Part shown: positions 6,935 through 64,000 of the stretch, piece after piece
How the letters are laid out: each line of letters starts with the position of its first letter
Numbering within the stretch: position 1 is the first letter of the stretch
Virus record (IMG/VR): IMGVR_UViG_3300028804_000003
Location: 16,859 to 80,858 of that record
DNA length: 64,000 nucleotides
Strand: one strand, 5' to 3'
DNA from: a virus
Taxonomy: Duplodnaviria > Caudoviricetes
Program-made: the position numbers and the translations under genes
Notes under the pieces: generated by a model
Seen by the model: only the letters and a program-made list of their open reading frames with translations
What the model was told of the DNA's origin: nothing
Database searches by the model: none

Positions 6935-8613
6935 CACTGACGCCCAAGAAACTCGTGAAGAGCTATGCGAAGCATGGCAGTCTAAAGAAGGTCTGGAAGG
7001 CCCATCCGGGCACGTCATGGAAGACCGTGCTGAATGTATATGCCGTGGCCGTGGCTGAGGGTTTGATGCAGCCGTTGCGTCCGGGCGCGAAGACCAAGAA
7101 TCAACTGGCAAACCCGAGCGAAGTTCTCGATGTGCCGACCGGCAAGGTGCGCGCACTCGAAACCGTCGAGGCCAAGATGCCGAAGCGCGGCGTGAAGCGC
7201 TACCTGTTCACCTCAGCACAGAACAACACGCATGCGTTCGCGCCTTTCTGGCGCAATCTGCTGGTGCTCCGTGAGCACTACAAGGCCGAACTTCATGTCA
7301 GCCGCTTCGTCTATCTGACAACCAGTGTCGCATCTGTGCTTGACAAGCACGTGGCATTCGACGGGCTCAAGACGGTGGAGAAGGAAGACATCTGGTGGGC
7401 ACCCGAGTTCAAGCCGTATCTGTCCGACTACCGCATGGAGGTGGCACCGGGACTCGTGTGGTGCGGCGAGATGAACATCCTGCCCACGGCTGAAAACCCG
7501 CTTGGTGGGCTGGAAGTCTACACCGGGCGCAAGTCCGCGATCTTCCCGCATGCCAAGGTAGCCATGCAATCCATCGCATCGAGCAAGCATGCGCCTACCA
7601 AGTTCAACTACACCACCGGCACTGCCACGTTGCGCAACTACATCCAGCGCAAGGCCGGTCTCAAGGCTGAGTTCCATCACGTCTACGGCGCGCTGCTGGT
7701 GGAGGTCGATGCCGAGGGCGATTGGTTCTGCCGTCAGATCATCGCGGACTCCGAGGGCGTCATCAACGACCTTGATGTGAACGTGGATGCCAACGGTGTG
7801 CTGACCACCGGCAACAATGTCGAGTCCATCACGTGGGCTGACATCCACTCGGACGATCTGGTGCCATGGGTGCGCGAGCTTGCATGGGGACCGGGCGGCA
7901 TGCTCGATATTCTGCAACCGAACTCGCAATTCTTCCATGACGTGCTCGGCTTCCGCGCCAAGAGCCATCACGAACTGAAGCATCCGCACCGCTTGTTCCG
8001 CCGATACCTTCTCGGCCAGACGAACGTGAAGAAGGAGTGCGAGGATGTCTGCACCTTCCTGACCGTGGCCTTCCGTGATTGGTGTGACAACGTCATCGTG
8101 GACTCGAACCATCATGACCACCTTGGCCGCTGGCTTGAAGAGCAGGACGGTCGTCTCGATCCGAAGAATGCCGAGTTCTGGACGGACATGCAGGCCCGCG
8201 TGTGGGCCGACTTGCGCGCCGGGGCTCAGACACCCAACTACTTCCGACTCATGGTGCAGGCCGTGCAGCCGGGGCTTCAGGGTGTGCTCACGATCCTTGA
8301 CCGCGATACGAGCTATATCATCTGCCCGGATCGCAATGGTGGCATCGAGTGTGGCATGCACGGCCATGCAGGACCGAATGGTGGGCGCGGCAACCCTCGT
8401 GCTTTCGCCAAGCTCGGGCGCAAGGCCAACCTCGGCCACTATCATGCGGCTGGCATCCTTGACGGCATCTACTTCGGCGGCACGTGCTCTTCGCTCGACC
8501 CCGATTGGACCACAGGCCCCGGCGCGTGGTCTCACTCCCATATCGTGACGTACCCGAACGGGAAACGCACCATCGTGACTATGTGGAACAACAAGTGGAA
8601 GGCGGGTAAATAG
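6931..8613 (+). CDS. large calcineurin-like metallophosphoesterase-fold protein
   Basis: Ordered motifs 'WADIH', 'HDVL', 'DSNHHDH', 'MHGH', 'GHYH'; ATGA coupling to the resolvase gene. Confidence 0.65.
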   Translation: MTLTPKKLVKSYAKHGSLKKVWKAHPGTSWKTVLNVYAVAVAEGLMQPLRPGAKTKNQLANPSEVLDVPTGKVRALETVEAKMPKRGVKRYLFTSAQNNTHAFAPFWRNLLVLREHYKAELHVSRFVYLTTSVASVLDKHVAFDGLKTVEKEDIWWAPEFKPYLSDYRMEVAPGLVWCGEMNILPTAENPLGGLEVYTGRKSAIFPHAKVAMQSIASSKHAPTKFNYTTGTATLRNYIQRKAGLKAEFHHVYGALLVEVDAEGDWFCRQIIADSEGVINDLDVNVDANGVLTTGNNVESITWADIHSDDLVPWVRELAWGPGGMLDILQPNSQFFHDVLGFRAKSHHELKHPHRLFRRYLLGQTNVKKECEDVCTFLTVAFRDWCDNVIVDSNHHDHLGRWLEEQDGRLDPKNAEFWTDMQARVWADLRAGAQTPNYFRLMVQAVQPGLQGVLTILDRDTSYIICPDRNGGIECGMHGHAGPNGGRGNPRAFAKLGRKANLGHYHAAGILDGIYFGGTCSSLDPDWTTGPGAWSHSHIVTYPNGKRTIVTMWNNKWKAGK

Positions 8614-8615
8614 CT

Positions 8616-9353
8616 ATGCGATATATGGGTTCGAAAAGTAGACACGCGGAGTCTTTAATAAGCATCATGCAACCGAGTAGGTATCCAGCATATGTAGAGC
8701 CCTTTGTAGGTGGGGCCAATTTGATAGATAAAGTAGAATGCCCCACACGAATCGGATGCGATGTAGACGCTGATTTAATTTGTTTATGGAAAGAAGTGTC
8801 CAAAGGATGGATGCCTCCCCTTTCTATTACAGAAGAGGAGTACAGGGTTCTTAAACTCGCTAAAGAACCTAGCCCTTTGCGGGGATATGCCGCCTTCGCA
8901 CTATCCTTTGGGGGTAAGAAATTCGGAGGATGGAGCCGAGATAAACAACAAAGCGACTACTCAAAAAGGGGATATACATCTGCTACTAAACAATTCCCGA
9001 AATTACTGGGCGTTCAATTTTTTAATTGTTCATATGAATTTTCTCCTTTACCAGAGGGGGCTTTAGTGTACTGTGATCCCCCATATATTGGCACTACCAA
9101 ATACTCGTCAAAGTTCGATCACGAAGCTTTTTGGGGGTGGGTACGTAAAACGTCACAAAGGCATCACGTATATGTTTCGGAGTACTTAGCGCCAAATGAT
9201 TTTACGTGCGTTTGGGAAAAACAGACTAAGTCCGGTATCAGATGTAAAAATACATCAGAAAAAAACGGAGAAACTCTTCACGTTCATATAGGAGAAGACG
9301 ATGACAACAAAGAGACTCTATCTGGCTGGCCCTATTGCGGGGCTGACCTATGA
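8616..9353 (+). CDS. Dam/D12-class N6-adenine DNA methyltransferase
   Basis: 'RYMGSK', 'YVEPFVGG' SAM-binding motif, 'YCDPPY' catalytic motif; AT-rich. Confidence 0.9.
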   Translation: MRYMGSKSRHAESLISIMQPSRYPAYVEPFVGGANLIDKVECPTRIGCDVDADLICLWKEVSKGWMPPLSITEEEYRVLKLAKEPSPLRGYAAFALSFGGKKFGGWSRDKQQSDYSKRGYTSATKQFPKLLGVQFFNCSYEFSPLPEGALVYCDPPYIGTTKYSSKFDHEAFWGWVRKTSQRHHVYVSEYLAPNDFTCVWEKQTKSGIRCKNTSEKNGETLHVHIGEDDDNKETLSGWPYCGADL

Positions 9354-9783
9354 AGAAGCTGCGCTCGATTGGCGTGAGCTTGTGATCCAGCATCTCCATG
9401 GTAGCCACCACTGGGTGGACATCCACTGCCACTCGCCCATGCGTGGCAAGGTGTTCCTGAAGGGCTCTGGCCAGATCATCGGCAAGCAGGGCTACGAGAG
9501 CCACCCGATGTCATCCATGCAGGGTATCATAGGTCGTGACCGCAATGACGTGATGATGGCTGACGCCGTCTTCATGAACGTGCAGGGTGCCAAGAGCGTC
9601 AGCATCGGAACCACAGTGGAGCTTGGGTGGGCCGATGCATTCCGCAAGCCGGTGATCCTTGTGTTGGACAAGGGCGGCTTCCATGACCATGCCTTCTATA
9701 AGGGCATAGCAACCTACGTTTGCGACTCAGTCCAACAAGGCATCGAGTGCGCCAAGGCGTTGCTCGTTCCGAACCCAGTCTAG
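9301..9783 (+). CDS. nucleoside 2-deoxyribosyltransferase / dNMP N-glycosidase family
   Basis: 'LYLAGPI', 'RDRNDVMMADAV', 'SIGTTVELGWA...KPVI'. Confidence 0.85.
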   Translation: MTTKRLYLAGPIAGLTYEEAALDWRELVIQHLHGSHHWVDIHCHSPMRGKVFLKGSGQIIGKQGYESHPMSSMQGIIGRDRNDVMMADAVFMNVQGAKSVSIGTTVELGWADAFRKPVILVLDKGGFHDHAFYKGIATYVCDSVQQGIECAKALLVPNPV

Positions 9784-59148: not shown

Positions 59149-59768
59149 TTAATTTTGCATTTTTCGCTTCAAAAAAGCCAAAAGGGCCTCTAATTCAGCG
59201 ATAGAGGCATCATTTTTCAGTGTATTAGCCCTATGAGACATAACTTGCACGTTTCCGGGCTCATATCCCCTCCTACAGTCGATTCGGTCGATACTCGGCA
59301 TCATGGGGTTCGGCCCACACAGGCTTGGCGGCAGCAGCGGCTCACCGAACACAGGACAGTTCTCGGGGATCACTATGTCATCCACAGTGATCGTGAAGGC
59401 CAGACCCTTAAATGCCGCGCGTTTCTTGGCTGATTCATACAGTCGGCGGGCTTCATCTCTCTTGGCTCTCAATGCGGCCCTTTTCGCTCTGCTGGCCTCT
59501 CTTGAGTATCGACCGGCCTCTATCGCTGCATCGACACAGGACGGGCAGCGTTTTCTCGCCTTATGCTCCAAGGGGTCCATATCCGCAAAGCAATCCACAC
59601 AAAAACGAGGCTCCTGAGAACGCTTCTCCACCAAAGCCTTCTTCTTGCGACGGTTCTCCTTGGCTCGCCTACGCTTGCGATCACATTCATCACACCTGTC
59701 TTTAGATGACAGGTAAGAACGCACGGGTGGGGAAACTGAACCACCACAGTCTTTACACGGTTTGCTCA
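59149..59768 (-). CDS. HNH homing endonuclease with N-terminal Zn fingers
   Basis: 'CPVFG...PSIDRID..RGYEPGNVQVMSHRANTLK'; several CxxC; probably leaderless from the promoter at 59776-59804. Confidence 0.8.
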
Positions 59769-59775
59769 TAAAATA

Positions 59776-59804
59776 TAGGTTACACCCCCTCGGGGTGAAT
59801 GTCA
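59776..59804 (-). promoter_or_regulatory. sigma70 promoter
   Basis: TTGACA-N17-TAACCT, 7 nt before ATG 59768. Confidence 0.55.
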
Positions 59805-59940
59805 AACCAAATTTTGCGGAATTTTTCCAGAAAACCAAATTTTTAGGGCCATTTTCGAGCTAAAAATGGGGCACGGACAGGCCTACGGGGACCTGACCCA
59901 CCCCCCTCACTTTAAGAAACCGTTTACCCTACCGGGGAGG

Positions 59941-60545
59941 GTTACCCGTTAAGGTTAACGCGGGGTTACCGTTAACTCATTGATAACCTTACGAATTAAG
60001 GTTAATAACCCCCTAATGTGCACCCGAAATTAACCATGTCTGTTAACGTTAAGGCACATGGTTAACAAAAGGTGGCTATTAACAAAGGGTTAACCTTAAG
60101 AGTTAAGGTTAACGTTCCCTCTCCTGTTCACTCATCATTAACCTTATCTATTAACCTTAACACATTGATGTTGTTGACTCATCTATCATTGTGTGCATCA
60201 AAGATATTCCATAATAACTATTATGCGAATGACGAATGGCAGCGAGGGGTAGTATGGTTAACCCACTGGTATAGTAGAGTAAGAGGTTATTAACCCTATT
60301 TAATAAGGTTAACAAAGGGTTACTGTTCATACTCTGTTAACCCTAAGAATTAAGGTTAATGCCCTGTAAAGGGTAAGGCCTTGTTAACGTTAACAAACAT
60401 GGTTAATAACCCCTTAATGGTAAGGAATCGTTAACCTTACTGAACATAGTGAACAAGGGGTTAATCAGGGCACCGGCGTTAACCACGTTCCTTAATACCC
60501 TACTTATCAGGTAGACTATACAGACTCTCTAGGAATGGTTAACAA
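59941..60545. repeat. degenerate 47-bp-periodic TTAA/GTTAAC array
   Basis: 14 perfect GTTAAC in about 600 bp; TTAA anchors at 59949/59996/60043/60090/60138 and 60290/60337/60384/60431/60479. Confidence 0.85.
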
Positions 60546-60719
60546 GGCGTTGTGGGCAAGCGGCCTATACCCTAGCGCCACGGCGCTGCAATCACAGAAA
60601 GCCATTCCTGCAAATGCGCTCTACAGATTGAATCCTGAAATCATGATCTAGCACGCGAGTCCTTGTGTAATCATGGCAATCGTTTAGAATTGCCTGATTT
60701 ACACTCTTAAAGGGAATTC

Positions 60720-60957
60720 GGATTCATTCGGATTCATTCCAAAAACCTTGAATGATCCCATTGATTTTACAAATGAATCAATGAATCCGTGTTTTTTCTG
60801 GATTCATTCGGATTCATTCGATTTCAGCATGGGCACAATTTGCCTTATTTGCTCTAAATCATTGATATTAAACGGCAATCGAATGAATCCGACGAAAACA
60901 GGCTTTCCGAATGAATCCGTTGAAATCATTGAATGAATCCGATTCCCGAATGAATCC
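60720..60957. repeat. GGATTCATTC iteron-like cluster (4 forward + 4 reverse)
   Basis: Forward at 60720, 60730, 60800, 60810; reverse (GAATGAATCC) at 60881, 60909, 60931, 60948. Confidence 0.9.
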
Positions 60958-61163
60958 AAGCGCGCTTTCCATTCTAAATTCTTCCCGGCCTTCACAGATT
61001 GCCAGTTTTTCCGCTATTTGCGCCGCTCATGATTCCCGCGCTCGCAAGCTCTTGATATGTGGCCACAATAACCTTGAAAACCTATCTGATTCCGTGGCGC
61101 TATATAGAGCGCGATAAGCTCCCAAAGGGTCACGCAACGGCTGACTTGCCATGCTTGCCACAA

Positions 61164-61196
61164 TTAACGGTTTTTTAACACTTTGCCGTTATAGAT
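61164..61196 (+). promoter_or_regulatory. early promoter with perfect CtrA-type box
   Basis: TTAA-CGGTTTT-TTAAC-N10-TATAGAT. Confidence 0.7.
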
Positions 61197-61261
61197 CAAT
61201 GCCTGCACTCACATGCACGTGGGAGCAACGGCGCTCTTGCCGTCCAAACATGGAGTCTAAC

Positions 61262-61378
61262 ATGTCCCCTTTTTCCGCTTTCTTTTCCGCTGGACTCGCT
61301 CTTGCTATCGCCACGGGAATCCCGTTCGTGTCCGGCATGCTCGACACTTTCGCCGCTATCGTTTCGGCGTTGCAGTAG
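61262..61378 (+). CDS. 38-aa hydrophobic peptide (first early gene)
   Basis: GGAG RBS; MSPFSAFFSAGLALAIATGIPFVSGMLDTFAAIVSALQ. Confidence 0.6.
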   Translation: MSPFSAFFSAGLALAIATGIPFVSGMLDTFAAIVSALQ

Positions 61379-61389
61379 GAGTCGGGCTC

Positions 61390-61626
61390 ATGACCGCGTC
61401 AAGCTATACCATTTCACAGATTCGCGCCGTGCCGCTCTATTGCGAGCCGGGAAGGCTGGAGTCCGTGCTCGACTATATCGCCGGAATTGACAAGGCCATA
61501 GAGTCGGCCTTGCGCATGCGCTTGCACAATCCCTGCAAGGGGATTCGCTACACTCGCAACGGCGGAATCCGGTTTTTGAGAATCGGACGGCTGCAATTCT
61601 CATTCTGCATTTGCAAGAAAGGTTGA
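61390..61626 (+). CDS. early hypothetical protein
   Basis: AGGAG RBS. Confidence 0.65.
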   Translation: MTASSYTISQIRAVPLYCEPGRLESVLDYIAGIDKAIESALRMRLHNPCKGIRYTRNGGIRFLRIGRLQFSFCICKKG

Positions 61627-61630
61627 CATC

Positions 61631-62241
61631 ATGGAAACGGAAACAATCCCGGCATGGCGAGTCGAATATCTGGCAAAGCGCAAGGCTCTTGCCGAATTGA
61701 TGGAAGCTCACAAGGTGACCATTGCCGCGCGCCGAGTCGACACAAGGCCGGACGGCGACTCCGATTGGCACAAGAGCGCCGCGCATGCGGCCTTTGACGT
61801 GCTCCACAATGGGCGAGTCGTTTACAGCGGCCACTATAGCGCCGGAAGCCTTGCGGCCTTGCGGCCTTGCCTGACACGTTGCAGGCTTTCCGCGCGGCCT
61901 TCACGAAAGGGCGCAAGGGCTCGCATTGGATTTTCGCCACGGAGTCAGATGTGAAACACGCTTTCAGTGTTCGACAATCAAGCCGGTTGACACGTGATGA
62001 ATCGGACATTCTGGATTGTGTCCGGCGCGCATGGCTTCCCGAATCGGTTGACATAATTCAATCGCTGCTTTCCGATGCAACGGAAGAGTCCTTTTCCGAT
62101 TGGTGCGGCGATTTGGGAATGGACACGGACTCGCGCAAGGCTCTTGCCACATGGGAAGCATGCCGGGAATCTGATAGGGTTATGCGCCGGACATTTGGCG
62201 CGGACTTTGACTCGGCTGTAGACATCGCGCGGGAGTTTTGA
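61631..62241 (+). pseudogene. early gene split by an 8-bp tandem duplication
   Basis: ORFs 61631-61954 and 61867-62241 fuse in frame into one 200-aa protein if one GCCTTGCG unit (61848-61871) is removed. Confidence 0.65.
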
Positions 62242-62243
62242 GA

Positions 62244-62390
62244 ATGTTCTATATTGTATGCAAATCGGACTCCAGCCTGTTTTGGAGTAACCGGCACGGA
62301 TGGACTGATAAGGAATCGGCTGACATTTTCACGGCGCAAGAGTCCGTGCTCTTGAGCTTGCCGATTGACGGCAAATGGATGGAGTTTTGA
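62244..62390 (+). CDS. 48-aa early protein
   Basis: GGAG RBS; MFYIVCKSDSSLFWSNRHGW...; translated by hand. Confidence 0.6.
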   Translation: MFYIVCKSDSSLFWSNRHGWTDKESADIFTAQESVLLSLPIDGKWMEF

Positions 62391-62392
62391 GA

Positions 62393-62725
62393 ATGGAAAC
62401 GCCGCAATTCTTCAAGGCTAGTGACGTGGCCGAGTCTCTTGGTTACGTGCTTACACGTGGAGTCGGTGGTAGGTTGTTTGTCGTTTGGAGACGTGGCACG
62501 AATGGCCGCAAGAGCAACCGATTCGACTCCATCAAGGCCGCAATCGCCCATTGCCGGGAACATGCAATTCCGGCTGACTTTCCGGTCAAGCCTTTGATGC
62601 ACAGTGATTCCGCGATTGACCGTTGCCAATGCGGCGAATGTGGCCTGTCATGGGATGACGGCAAGGTGACCGGCTGGACTCCTAGTCCGGCTGGAAGGTG
62701 TCCGTTTGAGTATTTCCACAACTGA
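62393..62725 (+). CDS. early hypothetical protein with C-terminal Cys motif
   Basis: 'CQCGECGLSWDD...TPSPAGRCPFEYFH'. Confidence 0.65.
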   Translation: METPQFFKASDVAESLGYVLTRGVGGRLFVVWRRGTNGRKSNRFDSIKAAIAHCREHAIPADFPVKPLMHSDSAIDRCQCGECGLSWDDGKVTGWTPSPAGRCPFEYFHN

Positions 62726-62737
62726 GGAGTCCAGATC

Positions 62738-62932
62738 ATGAAAACCGTGTTTTTCTTGTTACTCATGGCAACGCCGGACGGCAACCTTTGGACCATGGAC
62801 TCCGGGCTTACGCAAGAGGATTGCGGCAAGGCCATTGCAGCCGGATTTTCCGGTTATGTGGATGAGCGCAACGGCTGGCATGATATCCCGGACGGCGCGG
62901 CCTATATCTGCAAACCGGAGGATGAGCGTTAA
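62738..62932 (+). CDS. small early protein
   Basis: AGGAG RBS, hydrophobic N-terminus. Confidence 0.65.
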   Translation: MKTVFFLLLMATPDGNLWTMDSGLTQEDCGKAIAAGFSGYVDERNGWHDIPDGAAYICKPEDER

Positions 62933-62961
62933 CCTTTTGTTAACACCTTCCCTGTATACCT
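62929..62961 (+). promoter_or_regulatory. early promoter with perfect CtrA-type box
   Basis: TTAA-CCTTTTG-TTAAC-N10-TATACCT. Confidence 0.7.
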
Positions 62962-63010
62962 CACATCACGGCGCGGCATGGTGCAGCGCTGCTAATCTCA
63001 GGAGTCTAAA

Positions 63011-64000
63011 ATGGAACTGATGCAGGCAAACAAGAATTGGCTTTCCCGTCCGGCAGATGAGCGCTTCACGTCATTGATTGACTTGCGCGATAAGGTGACG
63101 GATGAGCGCCGCAAGTCGCGCGCTGGAGTCGTGTCGAGCAAGTCTCTTGCCTTCCAGCCGGTTGACGGCGACTCGACGTTCAAGGGAATCGAAATTGTCA
63201 GCAAGAAAACCGGCAACGTCATTGCGCCGACTCATTGGGCCTTTGGCCAGATTGCCGCGCGACTCGGCGCACCTGCAAGCTACTTGCGCAACCTTCCCGC
63301 ACCTCTTGCAGCCGATTGCCTGAATTACTCGACAATCAAGGCCGACTCGGAAGATGTGGGACTCCTTATCGGCACGGATGACGCCGGGAAGCCTTCCACA
63401 TTGCGCGCGGCAACCGGCCCTAAATATGGGCGCGTTTGGAATCAGTCCATTGCCGACTCTCTTGTCAACCTGTTTGGCGATGGACAAACCGGCGCTTTCC
63501 GTGTTCCCGGCGCTTATGGTTCAACGGACATTGTCACCGACAAGATGGACTCGACTCTCTATGCAAGTGACCGTGACATGTTTGTGTTTTTGGCGGATCA
63601 AGAAAACCGAATCACAATCGAGAATCGCCGCAACGGCGAGTCCGGCTCACTTGCGCGCGGAATTTTCGTTTGGAACAGTGAAACCGGCGCAAGCTCTTTC
63701 GGAATGGCTGCTTTCTTGTTTGATTTTCGATGCAAGAATCATATCATTTGGGGCGCGTCCGAATATCGCGAGTCCCGCTTCCGTCATACGGCAAGCGCGC
63801 CGGACAAATGGCTTGACCATGTCGCGCCGGTCATCAAGGCCTATTCGGAATCATCGGCAAGGCCATATGAGGCTGCGCTTGCGGCTGCACAAGCCAAAAA
63901 GATTGATGACGTGCAAGCCTTCATGAATGACCGATTCAGCAAGCGCATGGCAACGGCAATTCTTGCCGCTCATGTCGATGAGGAATCAAGGCCGGTTGAA
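63011..64000 (+). CDS. DUF932-like protein (3'-truncated by window edge)
   Basis: AGGAG RBS; open frame to the window end; 'HWAFGQIAARLGAPASYL', 'LYASDRDMFVFL', 'RGIFVWNSETG...CKNHIIWG'; missing from the ORF track because there is no stop. Confidence 0.75.
   Translation, partial: MELMQANKNWLSRPADERFTSLIDLRDKVTDERRKSRAGVVSSKSLAFQPVDGDSTFKGIEIVSKKTGNVIAPTHWAFGQIAARLGAPASYLRNLPAPLAADCLNYSTIKADSEDVGLLIGTDDAGKPSTLRAATGPKYGRVWNQSIADSLVNLFGDGQTGAFRVPGAYGSTDIVTDKMDSTLYASDRDMFVFLADQENRITIENRRNGESGSLARGIFVWNSETGASSFGMAAFLFDFRCKNHIIWGASEYRESRFRHTASAPDKWLDHVAPVIKAYSESSARPYEAALAAAQAKKIDDVQAFMNDRFSKRMATAILAAHVDEESRPVE

Follow-up and report, generated by a model that had tools for sequence, protein, structure and literature searches.

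Several pili- and flagellotropic phages of Alphaproteobacteria (vB_BsubS-Delta, phiCbK, Cp1R7A-A1, and MMDA13) carry gaps of ~1 to 1.3 kb between divergent gene blocks, in which TTAA repeats and CtrA sites are found (Mascolo et al. 2022, PMC9437464). The evidence comes from gel shifts and reporters, with CtrA binding shown for three phages and CtrA sites predicted for MMDA13 (PMC9437464). We present here an analysis of a 64,000-nt stretch of viral DNA (the window), bases 16859 to 80858 and thus the last 64 kb of the 80,858-bp IMG/VR viral contig IMGVR_UViG_3300028804_000003, in which a gap of this kind is followed by a gene block saturated with the pentamer GANTC, here called the GANTC lattice. 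The contig was recovered from activated sludge, and the phage is uncultured. The contig ends overlap by ~127 bp, indicating a closed circular genome of ~80.7 kb. Because the GANTC block crosses the window end, it was followed into the start of the same contig (L001), which continues where the window stops. The part described below probably comprises the divergent control region of this 80.7-kb siphophage together with its block of immediate-early operons, and the host is likely a wastewater alphaproteobacterium.

The gap (59839 to 61261, ~1.4 kb) lies between a leftward and a rightward arm and contains no credible gene. The rightward arm comprises ~17 small genes of + orientation between 61262 and L001 3118. 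An earlier reading of this DNA without database searches (the sequence-only reading) had named it a divergent control region with early genes, across which a TTAA array, GANTC-containing iterons, box promoters, and GANTC-saturated coding DNA follow one another. The layout is as described, a gap followed by a phage's first rightward operons, and all four motif layers are real, in that order and far beyond chance. Like the gaps of Mascolo et al. (PMC9437464), this one is a gene-free divergent gap of ~1 to 1.4 kb with tens of TTAA and with TTAACCAT and GTTAACCTTAAC words, and its boxes lie ahead of small genes of unknown function. It differs from them in that few array repeats have N7 spacing and a 47-bp phase dominates, in that canonical boxes of one promoter design (P1 to P3) stand at three operon starts, and in the GANTC lattice; GANTC is mentioned 0 times in PMC9437464. 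It is moderately likely that the CtrA half of the region is a further member of the published kind, and the statement in the sequence-only reading that CtrA sites occur in alphaproteobacterial phages agrees with the binding shown experimentally (PMC9437464). That reading also knew of no description of both signals at this density in one phage region. The TTAA/CtrA gap is in fact published (PMC9437464), but literature searches turned up no account of phage genomes enriched in GANTC. The lattice, unpublished as far as these searches show, appears to be a robust and conserved sequence phenomenon, and together with the boxes it suggests that the phage reads the host cell-cycle machinery.

Clusters of methylase sites acting in cis are known from GATC at E. 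coli oriC with SeqA, from P1 pac, and from IS10. GANTC itself rises around alphaproteobacterial origins (PMC9836097). The lattice resembles all of these as a local excess of an orphan-methylase word, which in those cases acts through methylation state. Those clusters cover hundreds of base pairs of noncoding DNA, whereas the lattice covers 5.7 kb of coding DNA with ~17 genes. The GcrA/CcrM-dependent sigma-70 promoters of Caulobacter also use this five-base word, likewise with any of the four bases at its center, and their host reader could couple methylation state to transcription (Haakonsen et al. 2015, PMC4647560; Fioravanti et al. 2013, PMC3667746). Such a promoter contains one or a few sites in the context YGAKTCK; in the phage, coding DNA carries ~100 evenly distributed sites that do not follow this context.

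In the window, GANTC occurs 34 to 36 times per 2 kb between 60 and 64 kb and ~6 times per 2 kb elsewhere. The lattice extends from 61250 to 64000 and on to L001 3118, with 99 sites in 5,744 bp (17.2 per kb) and all four central bases represented. Dinucleotide shuffles of the block gave 24.3 ± 4.7 sites with a maximum of 40, so the coding DNA is indeed GANTC saturated, and the saturation runs beyond the window. The rest of the genome has ~3.3 sites per kb and is mildly depleted (255 versus 374 expected from dinucleotides). The 16 coding sequences of the block contain 87 sites, compared with 42.5 ± 3.9 after synonymous-codon shuffling (z ~11) and 22.8 ± 4.4 after codon-order shuffling. Since both shuffles lower the count, both codon choice and amino acid order are bent toward GANTC. 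The sites are distributed 42/30/16 over the reading frames. All 42 Asp/Glu-Ser dipeptides in the block are coded GAN-TCN, versus 73% in the rest of the genome, and such dipeptides are four times more common in the block when longer open reading frames are compared. The ribosome-binding site reads GGAGTC in ~11 of 16 to 17 cases. GANTC is under direct DNA-level selection. Its flanks show a mild G/C preference only, and no longer motif emerges; together with the use of all four central bases, this is the specificity of CcrM/HinfI-type proteins on duplex DNA.

Among the genes of the block is a DUF932-family gene (63011 to 64000, on to L001 244, + strand; 368 amino acids; weak Pfam DUF932 match). 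It holds 21 GANTC sites, or 19 per kb, while 140 orthologues have a median of 1.9 per kb. Homologues number 2,737, the closest sharing 95 to 73% identity.

Relatives were sought by a metagenome pattern scan, which found one true relative, L180; the other eight matches are chance or unrelated (e.g., L176, inside a coding gene). Close relatives found through the large terminase (TerL) are short fragments that end before the early region. L180 is part of a 63.7-kb contig and is 93 to 99% identical to this phage in the left arm and 74% identical in the gap. The TTAA array, the boxes of P1 and P2, and GGAGTC as ribosome-binding site are preserved in L180, in contrast to the iterons and several early genes. 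Over 2.27 kb, the L180 early DNA contains 44 GANTC (19.3 per kb), a single GATC, and a single GTAC; in the left arm, the densities are 1.5 per kb for GANTC and 5.3 per kb for GATC. Array, boxes, and GANTC density are thus conserved in related phage DNA. Of 11 sites of this phage in the DUF932 gene shared with L180 (65% amino acid and 69% nucleotide identity), 8 recur at the same position in L180, compared with a baseline of 0.31, and the L180 gene has 5 GANTC sites of its own. GANTC sites have therefore been both retained and newly made.

These results bear on the view that the lattice has no function and follows from the different codon or oligonucleotide usage of a module gained by horizontal transfer. 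Many words do differ in the block (AACCGG is enriched 12-fold and GCGC ~3.7-fold, 3.75× over expectation), and its genes are mosaic among variants. However, synonymous shuffling halves the GANTC count, and a maximal-order Markov model ranks GAGTC/GACTC first among pentamers. The density of GANTC in the block is 5.2× that in the remaining genome; for seven N-centered palindromes of equal composition, the figure is 0.56 to 1.85×. Sites are also kept above baseline and regained in replaced genes. This view was disfavored already, and we regard it as highly improbable.

Clear GANTC islands are present in only two of the ~85 viral contigs found via DUF932. One is a 41-kb contig (G002) with 9 to 14 sites per kb over ~3.3 kb. 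The other (G001) is the cultured isolate Synechococcus virus S-ESS1 (NC_052968), with 10 to 16 sites per kb in the terminal ~5 kb on the right of the genome (54000 to 60362), where the genes read inward. The island proteins of S-ESS1 and G002 include none shared with this phage, and DUF932 lies elsewhere in their genomes. The codon signature is nevertheless shared: in the two islands, 100% and 91% of the Asp/Glu-Ser dipeptides are written as GANTC. About 10 DUF932-bearing contigs (L034, L038, L042, L044, L054, L062, L081, L083, L088, and L089) have zero GANTC in 9 to 21 kb, where ~30 to 70 would be expected. With islands in some contigs and total avoidance in others, GANTC is strongly selected, with either sign, in this phage population. 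No GANTC island was found in Erythrobacter phage ZS04 or Sphingomonas phage MMDA13. The relative contig L003 has, at 8150 to 9600, AACCGGAA repeat arrays beside a GANTC island of its own.

The same block is purged of other restriction words. GTAC is absent (0 versus 22 expected; observed-to-expected ratio [O/E], 0.00 in the block and 0.56 in the rest of the genome), GATC occurs 4 times (22 expected; O/E, 0.18 and 1.17), GGNCC 8 times (31.5 expected; O/E, 0.25 and 0.57), and CTAG 4 times (22 expected; O/E, 0.18 and 0.09). This resembles the avoidance of restriction sites by phages, with GANTC behaving in the opposite way. Because the first-expressed DNA has been purged of ordinary restriction words except GANTC, we argue that GANTC is no cleavage target for this phage. 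A GANTC-specific restriction-modification system of the HinfI type could nevertheless be involved, if the block needed quick methylation or its methylation state marked the previous host. The contigs with zero GANTC indicate that GANTC restriction pressure is real, and the purge of other restriction words is strongest in this block. Extra targets in the first-exposed DNA should be harmful, though, and GATC and GTAC have been removed from that very DNA; the rest of the genome, moreover, is only mildly depleted in GANTC. A restriction-modification origin of the lattice is accordingly improbable in our judgment.

The sites are evenly placed, with a mean spacing of 58 bp, a largest gap of 229 bp, and a coefficient of variation of 0.72 versus 0.98 at random; 0 of 3,000 simulations were as low. 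In periodicity analyses of four islands, no period stood out in any (z < 3) and none was reproducible. A nearest-neighbor excess at 40 to 46 bp (19 versus 5.8) was post hoc and absent from the other islands, and it was rejected. Even spacing, with selection for number over position, would suit a putative DNA-coating or bridging protein (from the phage, the virion, or a host, other than CcrM/GcrA) that docks on the lattice over the entire early block and protects, compacts, silences, or helps internalize the first-entering DNA, CtrA, CcrM, and GcrA having no part in the GANTC sites. This main rival, which we consider somewhat unlikely, would also accommodate the lack of a preferred GcrA context, the lack of shared island proteins among the island phages, and the record of one of these on a cyanobacterium. 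The absence of a periodicity reproducible across the four islands speaks against it. So does the comparison of island phages with others, in which no phage protein was common to the former and absent from the latter and no candidate reader was identified: only DUF932 is shared by the island phages, and it is also present in phages with zero GANTC.

The TTAA array (59941 to 60545) contains 33 of the window's 69 TTAA, all within 59949 to 60539 (~0.6 kb). It has two halves, 59949 to 60160 and 60258 to 60545, and is built of GTTAACCTTAAC-like 12-mers in 47-bp phasing with several ATGGTTAAC and TTAACCAT words. Distances between TTAA pairs peak at 47 bp (14 pairs), then at 6, 13, and 19 bp; 11 bp occurs only twice. 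The name TTAA array is therefore apt, while the term CtrA-type boxes, as used in the sequence-only reading, is true only of a minority of the array. The only phage database match of the gap region is to Sphingomonas phage MMDA13, which carries the same GTTAACCTTAAC and GTTAACCAT words ahead of its first rightward gene. A palindrome, CATAATAACTATTATG, occupies the AT-rich center between the array halves (60205 to 60232) and is nearly conserved in L180. Some close variants in other metagenomes lack half of the array (60114 to 60372).

The canonical TTAA-N7-TTAA sites sit outside the array, at P1 to P3. P1 (61164 to 61196, + strand) is a candidate early promoter with the sequence TTAACGGTTTTTTAAC and with TATAGA 11 nt past the second TTAA; its box is identical in L180 at 9255. 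P2 (62929 to 62961, + strand), also a candidate early promoter, reads TTAACCTTTTGTTAAC with TATACC at the same distance; in L180, at 10903, the half-sites are kept and the spacer differs (TTAACTGACTGTTAAC), the pattern expected of a protein that reads half-sites. The two promoters with perfect boxes reported from the sequence alone are both there, with perfect TTAA-N7-TTAAC boxes, but the boxes number three: the candidate promoter P3 has the box TTAACCTTTTGTTAAG at L001 729, just past the window end. All three follow one design (TTAAC-N6-TTAA, 11 nt, TATA[G/C/A]), and each lies 45 to 65 nt upstream of the first start codon in a gene run. At P2 and P3, the stop codon of the preceding gene is inside the first TTAA. 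The 6-kb block has eight TTAA, of which these three pairs use six; we estimate that ~0.01 pairs would arise by chance. By analogy with CtrA-activated promoters, we infer that the TATA is the -10 element and that the box overlaps -35. Scans of the region for consensus sigma-70 promoters and for terminators found no more than in shuffles. A terminator-like hairpin with a T run lies in the leader from the P3 TATA to the first gene (L001 768 to 785) and is a possible attenuator.

At the right end of the array is the word ATGGTTAAC-NN-GGCGTTGTGG-SCAAGC (60535 to 60570, + strand), read from the sequence and identical in L180. It recurs at L001 3754, followed by six 21-bp GTTGTGGCCAAGCTGCCCGCC repeats, and a related form is found at L001 9156 to 9290. 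The first of these places belongs to a second noncoding border directly after the block (L001 3119 to 4100), which holds another TTAA cluster and the six 21-bp repeats; a third such border is at L001 9110 to 9290. Copies of the 21-bp repeat GTTGTGGCCAAGCTGCCCGCC number 6 at L001 3768 to 3930, 4 at L001 9205 to 9290, and 1 in the window at 60548 to 60568. Always placed right behind a TTAAC cluster at a module border, the GTTGTGGCCAAGCTGCCCGCC arrays are probably operators of a phage regulator. Pattern scans of viral contigs returned 0 matches for the P1 box and the array-end word and one match, unrelated, for the 21-bp repeat. At 6.7 GANTC per kb, the module between the second and third TTAAC borders (L001 4100 to 9100) has an intermediate density, double that of the background.

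The TTAA array and the three boxes might themselves be operators of a phage-encoded regulator, their likeness to CtrA sites being coincidental. The dominant array spacings of 6 and 47 bp rather than 11 bp would fit, as would the recurrence of arrays at three module borders with phage-specific 21-bp repeats; an alphaproteobacterial host, moreover, is likely rather than certain. Yet all three boxes are perfect TTAA-N7-TTAA, and the P2 half-sites are kept with a changed spacer in L180, as CtrA sites would be. MMDA13, where CtrA sites are predicted (PMC9437464), shares these word types, and CtrA binding was shown in three other phages. The phage encodes no winged-helix response regulator. On balance, a phage-encoded reader of the boxes seems to us unlikely.

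The reading we prefer, with a probability of roughly 0.4, is that the lattice serves in cis as a field where host GANTC machinery docks or methylates, and that it is coupled to the CtrA-box promoters. Host CtrA~P would bind the boxes and turn the early operons on in the cell type entered. The lattice would act in cis through its density, as a docking field for a GANTC-recognizing host factor; the most likely candidate would be CcrM methylation, read by the RNA polymerase cofactor GcrA. Transcription of the single incoming genome would thereby be favored or timed, and the mark would be lost once unmethylated copies are made. With ~100 sites concentrated in one operon block, an effect on that DNA itself is indicated and titration is unlikely. 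The sequence-only reading had offered titration of the host regulators as an option, but the block adds only ~100 sites to ~250 elsewhere. In a more specific form, phages of Alphaproteobacteria would lay an evenly spaced, cis-acting GANTC "antenna" over their immediate-early genes which, with CtrA-activated promoters, lets the incoming genome be read via CtrA~P level at the promoters and CcrM methylation along the template, so that only one cell type, and only methylated parental DNA, would support early expression; this epigenetic timer within coding sequence is rather doubtful.

A host reader is the simplest assumption, as the phage has no CcrM-, GcrA-, or CtrA-type genes and no protein is confined to the island phages and common to them. 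Profile scans of the phage genome found no CcrM-type methylase (PF01555), GcrA (PF07750), winged-helix response regulator, or DpdA-type enzyme. Among the DNA methylase families scanned (PF01555, PF05869, and PF02086), only PF02086 was found, in a diverged Dam-family (D12 class) adenine methylase gene (8616 to 9353, + strand; PF02086 over cutoff, TIGR00571 at 53 bits and below its cutoff of 114.85). Neither the CcrM-type nor the Dam-family methylase was found in the other island phages. Over most of the genome, GATC occurs about as often as expected; its five-fold depletion is limited to the early block.

Several observations weigh against a host CtrA/CcrM/GcrA field. CtrA and GcrA peak at different stages of the Caulobacter cell cycle, so their joint use needs explaining. 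Most TTAA pairs of the array do not have the 11-bp CtrA spacing. With the sigma-70 scan at shuffle level, the boxes are the sole promoter candidates, and conservation alone carries their assignment. The sites run through coding DNA and are not in promoters; only P3 has one between box and TATA. The GcrA context YGAKTCK is found at 29 of the 99 block sites (29%) and at 26% of sites in the rest of the genome, which is chance level. GGAGTCT is common in the block. In the literature, YGAKTCK is the preferred GcrA context and GGAGTCT is among the worst-ranked GcrA sites (PMC4647560). TerL and the family A DNA polymerase (PolA) are closest to those of Beta- and Gammaproteobacteria phages (Pseudomonas, Bordetella, Janthinobacterium, and Variovorax). 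Finally, S-ESS1, with its comparable island, is recorded on Synechococcus, which is not known to have a CtrA/CcrM/GcrA circuit. S-ESS1-like contigs (L111 and L155) were binned with Brevundimonas and Cereibacter metagenome-assembled genomes, weak evidence either way, and the recorded cyanobacterial host therefore deserves a check.

An alphaproteobacterial host, as implied by the sequence-only reading, is likely from the genes compared. Matches of the GTA-like tail protein come almost exclusively from phages that infect Caulobacter, Rhodobacter, Brevundimonas, roseobacters, and sphingomonads, with one Microcystis phage in addition. In bacterial genome bins, the DUF932 subfamily is mostly alphaproteobacterial, including megabase-size contigs, with a Brevundimonas bin on top. 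The MMDA13 match points the same way, and TerL and PolA do not.

Between the array and P1 lies an iteron cassette (60710 to 60960) in which GGATTCATTC(G) occurs in 4 forward and ~5 reversed copies (60720 to 60957), or ~9 copies of a ~10-bp repeat in 240 bp in both orientations; the GC content of that kilobase is 0.42. Each copy has one GANTC, as the sequence-only reading had it, but the cassette is swapped among variants, with GTGCAAAATTG repeats without GANTC in L180 and GGATTCACTG in another variant (at 60714). GANTC within the iterons is therefore no conserved feature. The cassette looks like a candidate specificity site (origin or operator) for an origin-binding or repressor protein. Mosaic replacement of the cassette and of several early genes among close variants covers 60714 to 62810 of the window.

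Early operon 1 (61262 to 62932, + strand) has seven small genes of 38 to 110 amino acids, most with the ribosome-binding site GGAGTC, and is partly replaced in variants. Pfam and PHROG profile searches gave no informative family match for the early proteins; the only matches in operon 1 are to phrog_4273 and phrog_15177, both of function unknown. The DUF932 protein was modeled with a predicted local distance difference test (pLDDT) score of 83 and no Foldseek match. VIA structure comparison gave weak matches only (Z, 5.9 or less), among them a weak resemblance of the N-terminal residues 35 to 138 to oligonucleotide/oligosaccharide-binding (OB) folds at a Z of ~5, below the noise level of the tool. 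The first gene of the leftward arm (59149 to 59838, - strand) encodes an endonuclease VII/HNH-like protein with a zinc ribbon (phrog_3322, E = 3e-28; phrog_1035, E = 1.4e-18; weak Pfam DZR match) and is kept in L180. An Rfam search of 59 to 64 kb found nothing. Elsewhere, the genome encodes a siphophage's large terminase, portal, tape measure, and tail tube, a GTA-like tail protein with Rcc01698_C, a family A DNA polymerase, a ribonucleotide reductase, a prim-pol/helicase, and four tRNAs that look diverged. Near-identical or related sequences occur in metagenomes of activated sludge, wastewater, sludge, and river from several studies.

If the preferred reading is right, one phage would use two host cell-cycle signals at once. 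An orphan-methylase word would have been selected densely and evenly over kilobases of coding DNA, at a measurable codon and protein cost, placing a regulatory layer inside genes. Should the reader be something other than CcrM/GcrA, the lattice would still mark a factor that must dock along immediate-early phage DNA. The case is tractable: published CtrA assays are available for the boxes, the lattice can be recoded synonymously, and methylation can be read from virion DNA. For annotation, GANTC density combined with the GATC/GTAC purge marks the early block in contigs of uncultured phages.

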